Shown: positions 27,133 to 29,183, counted from the stretch's first letter. The stretch is 53,310 bases of DNA from Porticoccaceae bacterium (GCA_019090225.1 JAHRWI010000172.1:1-53310), one strand, 5' to 3'. Notes: generated from the sequence alone by a model not told the origin. Translations and numbers: made by a program.

Positions 27133-28203
27133 ATGGCTCGCGAGAAACGACACGTGAGCACGTTTAGCCTGTCTTTTCTCGATATTATGGCCTGCGGCTT
27201 TGGCGCCGTAACGCTGCTATTTTTAATCCTCAAGCACGATGCCAGTACCGCTATTAGCCCCGATGACAGCAATCTTAACGCCGAAGCAAGCCTGCTCGCC
27301 GAAGATATTATTGAGGGCGAGCGAGACAAAGTTAAGCTACGCAATAGTTTAAAAGTGTTGGAAAACGAAACCGTAGAAACCCAGGGGCTGTCGCGCCGGA
27401 TACTGGACGAACTCAATGAACGCAAACGCGAATTGAGTATCGAAGTCAGCCCTGATCAACAAATCGCCCTGCTCCGTAAACAGGTCGGTGAACTGGACAC
27501 CGAAACCTCTCGCCTCCGTGAACAGGGTAGCGCCAACGATACCCGCAGCTTTATCGGCACCGGTGACCGACAGTATCTGACTGGCCTCAAACTCGGTGGC
27601 CAAAGGGTATTAATCCTGGTCGATAGCTCGGCAAGTATGCTGGCCGAAACCATTGTCAATGTCGTCCGCCGCCGCAATATGAGCGATGCTGTGAAACGTA
27701 AATCTCCTAAGTGGCAACGGGCCGTGCGCACCGTTGAATGGTTGGTGTCACAACTCCCAACGGACAGTAATTACCAAATCTATACTTTCAACACCAAGGC
27801 TAAACCCCTGTCGAATAGCACTCGCGGCCAATGGCTGGATGCATCGGACAACGCCACACTAAACAACAACATCCAGCACTTAAAAGCCTTGAGCCCGCAA
27901 GGTGGCACCAGTTTGTATCACGCATTTAATGCAGCAAAGAGTTTTTCATTACGACCCGATAATATATTTTTAATTACCGACGGCCTGCCCACCCAGGGAC
28001 AGAGTAAACCCAATAAAACTACCGTCTCCGGCAAACAGCGAGGTGTTTTATTTAACGAAGCGATAAAACTATTACCCAGAGGTGTGCCGGTCAACGTGAT
28101 CTTATTTCCTATGGAGGGCGATCCCGCTGCCGCAGCCGCGTTCTGGCAACTGGGACTGTCCAGCAAAGGCGCTTTCCTCAGCCCCTCAAAGGATTGGCCA
28201 TGA
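27133..28203 (+). CDS. TolR/ExbD-like TM helix + coiled coil + vWA domain protein (paralog 1, complete MIDAS)
   Basis: 356 aa. N-terminus KRHVSTFSLSFLDIMACGFGAVTLLFLIL with Asp17 (gat at 27181-27183). About 100 aa of heptad-rich helix. vWA motifs VLILVDSSASM (DxSxS), GGTSLYHAF and IFLITDGLPT. Confidence 0.75.
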   Translation: MAREKRHVSTFSLSFLDIMACGFGAVTLLFLILKHDASTAISPDDSNLNAEASLLAEDIIEGERDKVKLRNSLKVLENETVETQGLSRRILDELNERKRELSIEVSPDQQIALLRKQVGELDTETSRLREQGSANDTRSFIGTGDRQYLTGLKLGGQRVLILVDSSASMLAETIVNVVRRRNMSDAVKRKSPKWQRAVRTVEWLVSQLPTDSNYQIYTFNTKAKPLSNSTRGQWLDASDNATLNNNIQHLKALSPQGGTSLYHAFNAAKSFSLRPDNIFLITDGLPTQGQSKPNKTTVSGKQRGVLFNEAIKLLPRGVPVNVILFPMEGDPAAAAAFWQLGLSSKGAFLSPSKDWP

Positions 28204-29183
28204 GGATTAGAAGGCGACCAGCGCCGGAGATCAGTATCTCCTTTCTCGATGTTATCAGCTGTGGCTTTGGTGCCATTGTGCTGCTCTTGCTAATTGCTCA
28301 AACTGTGGAATTTAGTGCGGTCGAATCCGGCGAACCCGAACAACAAAGCGTCGCAGCCCTACAGGAACAGCTATTCGCCCTGCGTGGCGATAACACAATC
28401 CTCAATCGCGAATTGATCACTAAGCAGGAGCAACTATCAGACCTGCGTGCTCGTATCGCCCGGCTCCGAGAACAATTGGCCAGCGTTGACAAAAGCCAGC
28501 AACATATTCCGGCGGACAATTCCGAACGTGATGAGCTAGCCCTCGCCCTGCAAGTGCTACAGGAAGAAATGGCGCGCCTGCTTGCCAGCCAGCCTCACAA
28601 GGATAATCAGGTGGTCGGCGGCATACCGGTCGATAGCGAATACATTGTTTTTATCGTCGATACCTCGGGCAGTATGTTTGATTTCGCCTGGCCAAAAGTA
28701 CGTCGTGAAATGATCAATATTCTCGACATATACCCCCAGGTCAAAGGTATTCAGATCATGAACGATATGGGTGACTATATGTTTTCCGGCTACAAAGGCC
28801 GATGGATACCCGATACCCCAGGGCGCCGCAAAGCCATTATCAATCGCCTCATCACCTGGACGCCATTCAGCAACTCCAGCCCAGTAGAGGGTATACAAAG
28901 AGCCATTCGAGCTTTTTACGCCCCCGACAAAAAAATCAGTCTGTATGTTTTCGGGGATGATTTTACCGGCGGCTCAATTCACACCGTACTCAAGACCGTT
29001 GATCGTATTAACGCAAGCCGACGCAAGGGCGATCGTCTGGTGCGCATTCATACTATTGGCTTTCCGGTGCATTTTCTGGTCCCTGGCGGGCGAGCGCAAA
29101 CAGCGACACGTTTTGCAGCATTGATGCGCGAACTCAGTTATCGTAACGGAGGAACCTTTGTTGGCCTAAACAGCCTTAATTGA
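28200..29183 (+). CDS. TolR/ExbD-like TM helix + coiled coil + vWA domain protein (paralog 2, partly degenerate MIDAS)
   Basis: The ATG at 28200 overlaps the upstream stop (ATGA); the track alternative is the TTG at 28194. N-terminus RRPAPEISISFLDVISCGFGAIVLLLLIA with Asp17 (gat at 28248-28250). Coiled coil present. vWA motif IVFIVDTSGSMF (DxSxS), but the GGT and TDG positions read SSPVEG and FGDDFTG. Confidence 0.75.
   Translation: MRIRRRPAPEISISFLDVISCGFGAIVLLLLIAQTVEFSAVESGEPEQQSVAALQEQLFALRGDNTILNRELITKQEQLSDLRARIARLREQLASVDKSQQHIPADNSERDELALALQVLQEEMARLLASQPHKDNQVVGGIPVDSEYIVFIVDTSGSMFDFAWPKVRREMINILDIYPQVKGIQIMNDMGDYMFSGYKGRWIPDTPGRRKAIINRLITWTPFSNSSPVEGIQRAIRAFYAPDKKISLYVFGDDFTGGSIHTVLKTVDRINASRRKGDRLVRIHTIGFPVHFLVPGGRAQTATRFAALMRELSYRNGGTFVGLNSLN

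Follow-up and report, generated by a model that had tools for sequence, protein, structure and literature searches.

Paired von Willebrand factor A proteins with an invariant intramembrane aspartate as candidate axle subunits of a MotA/TolQ-type motor

Why should two adjacent genes encode paralogous von Willebrand factor A (vWA) proteins whose only transmembrane (TM) helix carries an invariant aspartate? The question is raised by a 53,310-nucleotide stretch of DNA from a Porticoccaceae bacterium (GCA_019090225.1, JAHRWI010000172.1:1-53310), which was analysed in full and is called the window below. An initial annotation, made from the sequence alone, had read the two proteins as TolR-like subunits of a 5:2 motor, in which five copies of a ring protein surround a two-subunit axle. 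Ion motors of this 5:2 type power flagella, the Ton and Tol systems, gliding and the type IX secretion system (T9SS), and Zorya. Our comparative analysis supports that reading of the two proteins, and the assembly is what we infer from it: we put at about 0.65 the probability that the vWA proteins together make up the two-subunit axle at the centre of a proton-driven 5:2 motor whose ring is formed by g07, a MotA/TolQ/ExbB-like protein encoded close by. The genes and helices on which the argument turns are these:

24707-25504, plus strand: g07, MotA/TolQ/ExbB-like protein of 265 amino acids (T189 at 25271-25273, T222 at 25370-25372)
25641-27131, plus strand: g08, cytoplasmic protein of 496 amino acids, between g07 and the vWA genes
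27133-28203, plus strand: vWA paralogue 1, 356 amino acids (basic N-terminus, TM helix, two long helices, vWA domain)
27163-27231, plus strand: TM helix of paralogue 1, residues 11-33, with Asp17 encoded by GAT at 27181-27183
28200-29183, plus strand: vWA paralogue 2, 327 amino acids from the ATG at 28200, architecture as in paralogue 1
28230-28298, plus strand: TM helix of paralogue 2, residues 11-33, with Asp17 encoded by GAT at 28248-28250
5690-6130, minus strand: the window's canonical TolR, used as comparator (Pfam ExbD 1.3e-26; Asp24 at 6059-6061), within tolQRAB at about 3414-6822

Both vWA open reading frames (ORFs) lie where the initial annotation had placed them, Asp17 codons included, and their paralogy was borne out: hhalign comparison of the two family profiles finds them homologous end to end (99.9% probability, E 1.7e-31), and BLASTP aligns them at E 7e-10 and 23% identity, mainly over the N-terminus and the first part of the vWA domain. 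Paralogue 1 begins MAREKRHVSTFSLSFLDIMACGFGAVTLLFLIL and paralogue 2, read from the ATG at 28200, begins MRIRRRPAPEISISFLDVISCGFGAIVLLLLIA. A mechanical ORF list starts the latter at a TTG (28194); its relatives align from the ATG, which overlaps the stop codon of paralogue 1 (ATGA). The helix region of the window's TolR reads ...AEINVVPYIDVMLVLLIVFM, with Asp24, the stretch around this residue being ...VVPYIDVMLVLL... In all three proteins the sequences confirm what had been described, namely a short basic N-terminus followed by one TM helix with an intramembrane Asp (D24 in TolR, D17 in both vWA proteins).

The conservation of this residue was assessed in 42 diverse representatives of paralogue 1 (31-51% identity) and in 39 aligned relatives of paralogue 2, a closer set (53-73% identity to the window protein). 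When 1.84 billion cluster representatives were scanned in full, 1,391 relatives of paralogue 1 came to light; more than 8,000 protein clusters have words in common with the query. Gene order was examined in the best 80 of at least 594 matching stretches from a scan of species-representative genomes, for which the query was an alignment of 13 closer paralogue 1 sequences; about 10 kb of flank was taken on each side, and the denominators of the locus counts below are the loci whose contig reaches far enough. Since these loci are the best 80 of at least 594, close relatives are over-represented in the counts.

Asp17 is invariant in both vWA families, where it forms part of the helix motif SFLDxxxCGFGA. 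In paralogue 1 it is present in 42/42 representatives and at 80/80 genome loci; G24 and L28 are likewise invariant among the 42, and F15, L16, C21, G22 and A25 are kept in at least 90%. Among the best 150 relatives, all 115 with a parsable N-terminus carry [FLIM]D...xG[FL]G; the remaining 35 include many in which this end of the protein is visibly truncated. For paralogue 2, D17, C21, G22, F23, G24 and L28 are invariant in 39/39 sequences, and a strict regular expression recovers the Asp at 71 of 79 loci. The eight exceptions comprise five ORFs called in the wrong frame of GC-rich sequence, one truncated start, one variant motif that keeps the Asp, and one uninspected case. In three distant loci with rearranged gene order, both paralogues read SF[LM]DCICCGFGAV. 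Conservation of Asp17, proposed as a check on the motor reading, therefore holds in both families, at identities as low as 31% and in the rearranged distant loci too.

By sequence entropy, variability is lowest in the TM helix in both proteins: 1.05 bits in paralogue 1, compared with 1.96 in the vWA domain and 2.81 in the stalk between them, and 0.53 bits in paralogue 2, compared with 1.07 in its vWA domain. In paralogue 1, Asp17 (42/42) is even kept more strictly than three residues of the metal ion-dependent adhesion site (MIDAS) of the vWA domain, D164 (36/42), S168 (37/42) and T259 (31/42); the other two, S166 and D283, are kept in 42/42. The small conserved residues C21, G22, G24 and A25 lie on or beside the Asp face of the helix. 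Because Asp17 is invariant and the helix is the least variable region, the helix appears to be more than a lipid-facing anchor.

Hydrophobic stretches and charge, rather than a dedicated predictor, were the basis for assigning TM segments and topology. In the two paralogues, the ten residues preceding the helix have a net charge of +2 and +3, and the fifteen following it one of -2 and -4. By the positive-inside rule, this bias indicates that the N-terminus is cytoplasmic and that the vWA domains are periplasmic; a cytoplasmic vWA domain, which the initial annotation had named as speaking against its proposal, is thus not what the charges indicate. A periplasmic location also fits the neighbouring genes, most of whose products carry signal peptides, lipoboxes or membrane anchors. 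Apart from the vWA pair, no product among the ORFs of the cluster has an acidic residue in a TM helix.

If the two helices are axle subunits, what is the ring? The product of g07 matches Pfam MotA_ExbB (PF01618) at 2e-15, with 57.1 bits against a cut-off of 22.9. Its scores do not reach the cut-offs of the equivalog models for TolQ, ExbB and ZorA, and we therefore assign it to none of these subfamilies. A profile built from 37 orthologues aligns without gaps to E. coli TolQ (PDB 8odt, residues 104-211), and the alignment puts T189 and T222 of g07 on T145 and T178 of TolQ. Both threonines are invariant in the 37 relatives and remain so in an alignment that takes in distant orthologues as well as the TolQ of the window itself. 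The most conserved segment of g07 is TM3, which carries T189 (0.26 bits); judged by eye from its hydrophobic stretches, the protein seems to have four TM segments. In the TolQRA structures determined by cryo-electron microscopy, T145 and T178 form a polar ring that hydrogen-bonds D23 of TolR, and D23A in TolR as well as T145A and T178A in TolQ are among the substitutions made and tested there (PMC12583513). The MotA-like gene that the initial annotation had combined with the vWA pair lies two genes upstream of it in the window and is found at 68 of the 68 loci with enough flank, and it keeps both TolQ pore threonines.

The cluster was searched for an ordinary partner of this ring protein. None of the thirteen cluster products (listed below) has an ExbD or MotB model match. 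A search of all ORFs of the 80 loci with three TolR/ExbD queries, two of them E. coli sequences, found ExbD/TolR-like ORFs at 2 of the 80, both in Microbulbifer, 8-10 kb downstream and on the opposite strand. One apparent ExbD hidden within the cluster, at 7357-7722 of locus L062 (E 0.043), is an orthologue of the small g06 gene, with Ala where the Asp is expected, and was rejected as a false positive. Model scans and ORF search thus agree that a canonical TolR/ExbD partner is missing from the cluster. Since g07 lies beside the vWA pair and has no ordinary TolR/ExbD partner, the vWA pair is most likely its partner. The two paralogues occur together, with paralogue 2 present at 74/74 loci.

The motor that we propose would work as follows. 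Five copies of g07 would surround a heterodimer of the two vWA helices, each helix inserting into the ring pore with its N-terminus in the cytoplasm. Asp17 of each helix would alternately take up a periplasmic proton and release it to the cytoplasm, engaging the ring of Thr189 and Thr222 much as TolR D23 engages TolQ T145 and T178, so that the ring would rotate relative to the axle. A helical stalk of about 90 residues, probably a heterodimeric coiled coil, would hold two metal-dependent vWA heads in the periplasm, where they may link the motor with an envelope ligand. Were the heads fixed to the wall or the outer membrane, the ring would turn against g08, which probably docks on the ring or regulates it; were the ring held, the stalk and heads would turn. 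The 13-gene cluster may in turn encode a larger envelope machine with this motor at its core. What the analysis shows directly are the features of the sequences and how far they are conserved, the linkage of the genes, the lack of a canonical partner, single-protein folds and a charge-based topology; the 5:2 assembly, the proton coupling, the heterodimerisation and the identity of the load are all inferred.

Several results weigh against this proposal, and most of them concern the relation to ExbD, TolR and MotB. The vWA pair shares with ExbD and TolR a basic N-terminus, a single TM helix and a conserved Asp near the cytoplasmic end. Full-length vWA proteins have no Pfam ExbD (PF02472) match at E up to 0.1, nor do their 45-residue N-termini at E up to 10, whereas in a control the 21-residue TolR helix alone matches the same model at 1.6e-5. 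An N-terminal vWA profile found no ExbD, TolR or MotB chain among 177,635 PDB sequences at E up to 10. Aligned by hhalign to five ExbD/TolR sequences, Asp17 does fall on TolR Asp24, with P 0.036 and a probability of 1.4%, and this pairing needs a 5-residue gap that skips CGFGA; shared ancestry with ExbD/TolR can therefore not be claimed. That the helix is homologous to ExbD, TolR or MotB was accordingly not accepted, the PDB profile search, Pfam and hhalign all being negative or non-significant. Given these three outcomes, the likeness is one of features: the helix resembles that of ExbD/TolR in function, as judged from its sequence, and in architecture, and the vWA proteins should not be classed with the ExbD/TolR family. 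The description 'TolR/ExbD-type' thus holds for the basic N-terminus and the placement of the Asp and fails for detectable homology. On the side of the ring, the profile match of g07 to TolQ is weak (E 0.023 to PDB chains), and TolQ E173 and P187 are not retained. A paper in which such a system is predicted (Mol Biol Evol, June 2025; PMC12204202; 'Origin and Evolution of Bacterial Periplasmic Force Transducers') gives no functional data for its trans-pore-helix vWA family, and it states that for a related TolA/TonB-like family of vWA transducers no deletion phenotype has been reported.

Between g07 and the vWA genes lies g08, and any account of the locus has to accommodate it. It is present at 69 of 71 loci, its stop codon lies 1 nucleotide before the start of paralogue 1, and g08 and the two vWA genes are arranged as translationally coupled genes (the 1-nucleotide gap and the ATGA overlap). 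The protein has no Pfam or NCBIfam match. Its structure, like the others in this work a monomer AlphaFold2 model compared by Foldseek (mean predicted local distance difference test score, pLDDT, 83), comprises a fold like the Hsp70 nucleotide-binding domain (residues 1-330), a disordered linker (332-400) and a C-terminal beta-sandwich, the top Foldseek matches being Hsp70/DnaK nucleotide-binding domains at about 1e-16. Read by eye, the phosphate-binding motifs of Hsp70 look altered (DIQLHS against DLGGGT). In the distant metagenomic locus L085, a 512-residue protein that we equate with g08 by its position carries a precomputed Pfam match to the forkhead-associated (FHA) domain, and from this positional counterpart the beta-sandwich of g08 is taken to be FHA-like. 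The four-gene core of L085, that is g07, g08 and the vWA pair, stands between two Ser/Thr protein kinase genes (834-3410 and 12023-15964), one of the kinases being fused to Laminin_G and FGE-sulfatase domains. These kinases are hints of phospho-regulation through the FHA domain.

Such a protein at the cytoplasmic side invites the main rival to a motor, namely that the same ring and axle serve as an outside-in sensor in which ligand binding or strain at the vWA heads gates an ion path that is read by g08, in the manner of Zorya. FHA domains are signalling modules, and in Zorya ZorAB relays an envelope signal to cytoplasmic effectors. The near-invariable presence of the FHA-like g08 in the core speaks for a sensor, as do the kinase genes that flank the core of L085 and the clear Pfam FHA match of the protein at its g08 position. 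ZorAB is a precedent for a 5:2 motor in signalling (PMC11946911). Against a sensor, there are no matches to defence-system or phage families, and the window's cluster encodes neither a kinase nor a phosphatase nor an effector; read by eye, g08 shows no obvious phosphothreonine-binding motifs of the canonical FHA type; and most cluster products are periplasmic or outer-membrane proteins of structural type (TPR, PEGA, lipoproteins), which would suit a mechanical machine. We regard outside-in signalling as unlikely, and the remaining two explanations as less likely than it.

Of these two, the first holds that the helices are anchors only, Asp17 and CGFGA serving heterodimerisation or membrane insertion, and that g07 has another partner or needs none. 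This would explain why the helix lacks detectable homology to ExbD, TolR and MotB, and it is in keeping with BatB being among the best structural matches of the vWA domain, given that Bat proteins are TM-anchored vWA pairs not known to have a MotA-like partner. It leaves three observations hard to understand: a charged residue present in 42/42 sequences, within a helix better conserved than the globular domain, is unexpected of an anchor; g07 is always linked and keeps its Asp-binding threonines, though no canonical partner is encoded; and no other cluster product offers an acidic residue in a TM helix. A purely anchoring role is in our estimate improbable. That the vWA helices instead bind the outside of the ring and are pulled, like TonB or TolA, while another protein fills the pore, seems very improbable, for although a separate vWA family with an SHLS/His motif and tolR-like genes nearby has been described (PMC12204202), the helices here have an Asp and neither His nor SHLS, and no tolR/exbD-like gene is at hand to occupy the pore.

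Returning to the proposed axle, what would it carry? The initial annotation had described about 100 residues of coiled coil and a vWA domain in place of the ExbD periplasmic domain. The vWA domain stands; the coiled coil is, in the AlphaFold2 model of paralogue 1 (mean pLDDT 87), two predicted helices, at residues 45-102 and 107-132, which follow the helix at 10-39 and are themselves followed by a poorly predicted linker and by the vWA domain from about residue 155. No ExbD-type periplasmic domain is present, helices 45-132 and the vWA domain standing in its place, and the vWA proteins have no OmpA or MotB_plug match, their C-terminal domain being the vWA. By arithmetic, the roughly 88 helical residues would span about 13 nm if fully extended, with the two helices collinear. 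The spacing from TM Asp to MIDAS Asp is 139-156 residues in one paralogue and 135-144 in the other, and across 68 loci the stalks of the two lengthen and shorten together (r = 0.92, with no correction for phylogeny).

Paralogue 1 matches Pfam VWA_2 at 3e-9, and its vWA fold resembles BatB, the anthrax-toxin receptor (ANTXR) and integrin I domains (Foldseek about 1e-7), the best structural matches including 3ibs, which is BatB, and 4jdu, an aerotolerance protein from B. fragilis. Its MIDAS is complete, as had been noted, with D164, S166, S168, T259 and D283. The vWA fold of paralogue 2 is predicted from the profile alignment to paralogue 1. Its MIDAS had been called degenerate at the later positions, which proved wrong: D154-T-S156-G-S158, S226 and D253 are unchanged in 39/39 relatives, and in the profile alignment S226 stands opposite T259 and G252-D253 opposite D283-G284 of paralogue 1. 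On this alignment the second MIDAS reads as altered rather than degenerate. Paralogue 1 also has a basic insertion of about 20 residues straight after DxSxS (residues 171-194; 27643-27714, plus strand), ETIVNVVRRRNMSDAVKRKSPKWQ, in which K193 and W194 are invariant in paralogue 1; paralogue 2 lacks it.

The core is embedded in 13 genes on the same strand (17375-32143, plus), syntenic across Cellvibrionales, Alteromonadales, Lysobacterales and others; the synteny is seen in dozens of gammaproteobacterial genomes, and the vWA system is found chiefly in marine Gammaproteobacteria. Besides g07, g08 and the vWA pair, the cluster contains the following, with the number of loci at which each gene was found:

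17375-18736, plus strand: g01, secreted TPR protein with a marginal TonB_C match (found in 45 loci; its expected site lies beyond the fetched flank)
18749-19456, plus strand: g02, very acidic lipoprotein (48/48)
19453-20664, plus strand: g03, lipoprotein (49/49)
20677-22209, plus strand: g04, membrane-anchored TPR protein (54/54)
22191-24314, plus strand: g05, single-pass membrane protein combining five PEGA domains with an FGE-sulfatase domain, GldK/PorK-like (57/57)
24317-24610, plus strand: g06, small secreted protein of 97 amino acids with the conserved acidic C-terminus ...SEQISEDFSVPFPIDI
29254-29949, plus strand: g11, lipoprotein (69/71)
29946-30605, plus strand: g12, lipoprotein (67/69)
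30671-32143, plus strand: g13, M48 peptidase (55/65)

The g06 protein is poorly conserved by BLAST, its remainder being of low complexity, yet its C-terminus, ending ...FKPSEQISEDFSVPFPIDI, is sharply conserved. In at least 50 of 85 loci, a search for the C-terminal motif found (F/Y)xP(S/T)EEISEDLSV(S/P)FPVDI followed by a stop on the strand of the gene, directly upstream of the MotA-like gene in those checked, and the product of 3057-3323 in the distant locus L084 ends ...SVEMPSDV. Judging from this acidic sequence, the g06 C-terminus is a candidate ligand of the vWA MIDAS sites. The g02 lipoprotein has a lipobox, LLLLGVTAC, a long region rich in Ser and then of extremely Asp/Glu-rich low complexity, and a short conserved basic helical C-terminus; given its acidity, it may be another possible partner for metal-dependent binding by the vWA domains. 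Matches of g05 to Pfam PEGA (1.3e-55) and FGE-sulfatase (7.4e-43) are strong, that to NCBIfam GldK (5.5e-36) is below the cut-off (124.7 against 350 bits), and the gene is retained in the distant loci L084 and L085. The adjacent lipoprotein genes g11 and g12 were considered as paralogues and rejected, the two showing no similarity.

The distant loci L081, L084 and L085 (31-34% identity) keep the four-gene core in rearranged form, and they also hold PEGA/FGE-sulfatase, TPR, M48, TonB_C and lipoprotein genes in other arrangements, with M48, TPR and TonB_C genes near the core in L081. A promoter and terminator scan of 16500-33000 gave counts equal to shuffle expectation and is therefore uninformative on operon structure. 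A defence or phage origin was rejected, PADLOC and PHROGs giving only a sub-threshold similarity of g07 to ZorA (PADLOC E 0.0047; NCBIfam 12 bits against a cut-off of 500) and no match for the other genes. A full cluster also occurs in a metagenome-assembled genome (MAG) labelled Klebsiella pneumoniae (L049, contig CAMDWI010000021.1), and further carriers are MAGs labelled Rhodothermales, Saprospiraceae, Phenylobacterium and Vicinamibacteria, whose proteins are about 50-57% identical to the gammaproteobacterial ones; these odd labels look like binning or labelling errors rather than the true distribution. It is tempting to speculate that the vWA pair, the ring and g08 are the engine of an undescribed, widespread trans-envelope machine driven by the proton-motive force, whose rotating heads would take hold of an acidic ligand, for example the g06 C-terminus ...SEEISEDLSVxFPVDI. 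We offer this wider proposal tentatively, as a possibility that we would not yet expect to hold.

Two features elsewhere in the window are unrelated to the vWA genes. At 39187-41682 (plus strand) a 7TM protein is fused to an inactive transglutaminase (Pfam 7TM_transglut 4e-100) and is followed by an ATP-grasp gene (ATPgrasp_ST 1.7e-89), a known, little-studied pair. A tRNA gene cut by the window edge, at 1-61 on the minus strand, scores 50.4 bits with Rfam and is not called by ARAGORN; Rfam and tRNA scans found nothing else.

How do these findings relate to what is already in print? The idea of a vWA axle has been available since 2025 as a computational prediction. The force-transducer paper describes a 'TPH-vWA' group of TM-tethered vWA proteins from Proteobacteria, with tight linkage to tolQ-like genes, no tolR/exbD nearby and no SHLS, that have a TolR/ExbD-like trans-pore helix (TPH) with a conserved Asp and are mostly encoded as heterologous pairs, and it presents AlphaFold 3 models that place the Asp pair inside a conserved threonine ring (PMC12204202). 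Each of these features of sequence and gene order, a threonine ring in the partner included, was found independently here. The likeness is one of description, the published seed being from Idiomarina loihiensis, and on that ground the vWA pair appears to belong to the TPH-vWA family. The text available to us contains no mention of a g08-type gene, the 13-gene cluster, a small protein with an acidic C-terminus or an altered second MIDAS, and our literature search found no publication on the wider cluster. What appears to be new is g08 as a core component, the 13-gene cluster with its GldK-like/PEGA protein, the acidic tail of g06, the changed yet invariant MIDAS of paralogue 2 and the negative homology result against ExbD/TolR. 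The value of the present analysis thus lies in independent comparative support and in a fuller parts list, comprising g08, the 13-gene cluster and a candidate acidic ligand.

Among characterized systems, TolQ-TolR, ExbB-ExbD and MotA-MotB have rings of the same Pfam family, MotA_ExbB, and g07 retains the equivalents of TolQ T145 and T178. TolQ has three TM segments, and g07, by eye, seems to have four, like MotA. Like TolR D23, ExbD D25 and MotB D32 of E. coli, Asp17 lies about 7 residues into a helix that follows a basic N-terminus, and its local motif, F-L-D-[VI]-M, resembles the P-[FLY]-[IL]-D-V-M of ExbD/TolR-type helices, whereas the CGFGA after the Asp has no counterpart there. A long helical stalk and a vWA head take the place of the ExbD- or OmpA-type periplasmic domain, and the canonical motors have a homodimeric axle where two different subunits are proposed here. 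GldLM/PorLM of T9SS likewise combine a MotA-like ring with a single-TM axle that has a long periplasmic extension, and an FGE-sulfatase-fold protein, GldK/PorK, is encoded alongside, as is g05 here. In GldM, a conserved Arg, with a Glu on GldL, replaces the axle Asp. By contrast with GldK, g05 scores far below the model cut-off and has a TM anchor and five PEGA domains instead of being a lipoprotein; no T9SS genes are present. With Zorya the likeness extends only to the sub-threshold similarity to ZorA, ZorA/ZorB and an effector not being matched here.

BatA/BatB of the Bacteroides aerotolerance operon are also paired, paralogous, membrane-anchored vWA proteins encoded with TPR proteins. Bat operons contain MoxR and DUF58 genes and are not known to include a MotA-like gene. 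The AglRQS-Glt system of Myxococcus xanthus, to which no homologues of the Glt proteins were identified here, also pairs one TolQ-like subunit with two different TolR-like subunits, and it includes TPR and TonB_C-type periplasmic proteins, as does the present cluster. AglQ and AglS are small TolR-like proteins of canonical type, and CglB, a lipoprotein of the outer membrane, is separate from them. In M. xanthus gliding, according to two reports, the vWA domain of CglB is the adhesive output (PMC9946355, PMC11761067). In the proteins described here, unlike in AglRQS/CglB, the vWA domain is fused to the proposed axle itself. If the proposed motor is correct, an axle with integrin-like vWA heads would be a new route of membrane energy into the periplasm, and a new class of 5:2 output beside flagellar rotation, Ton/Tol, gliding/T9SS and Zorya.

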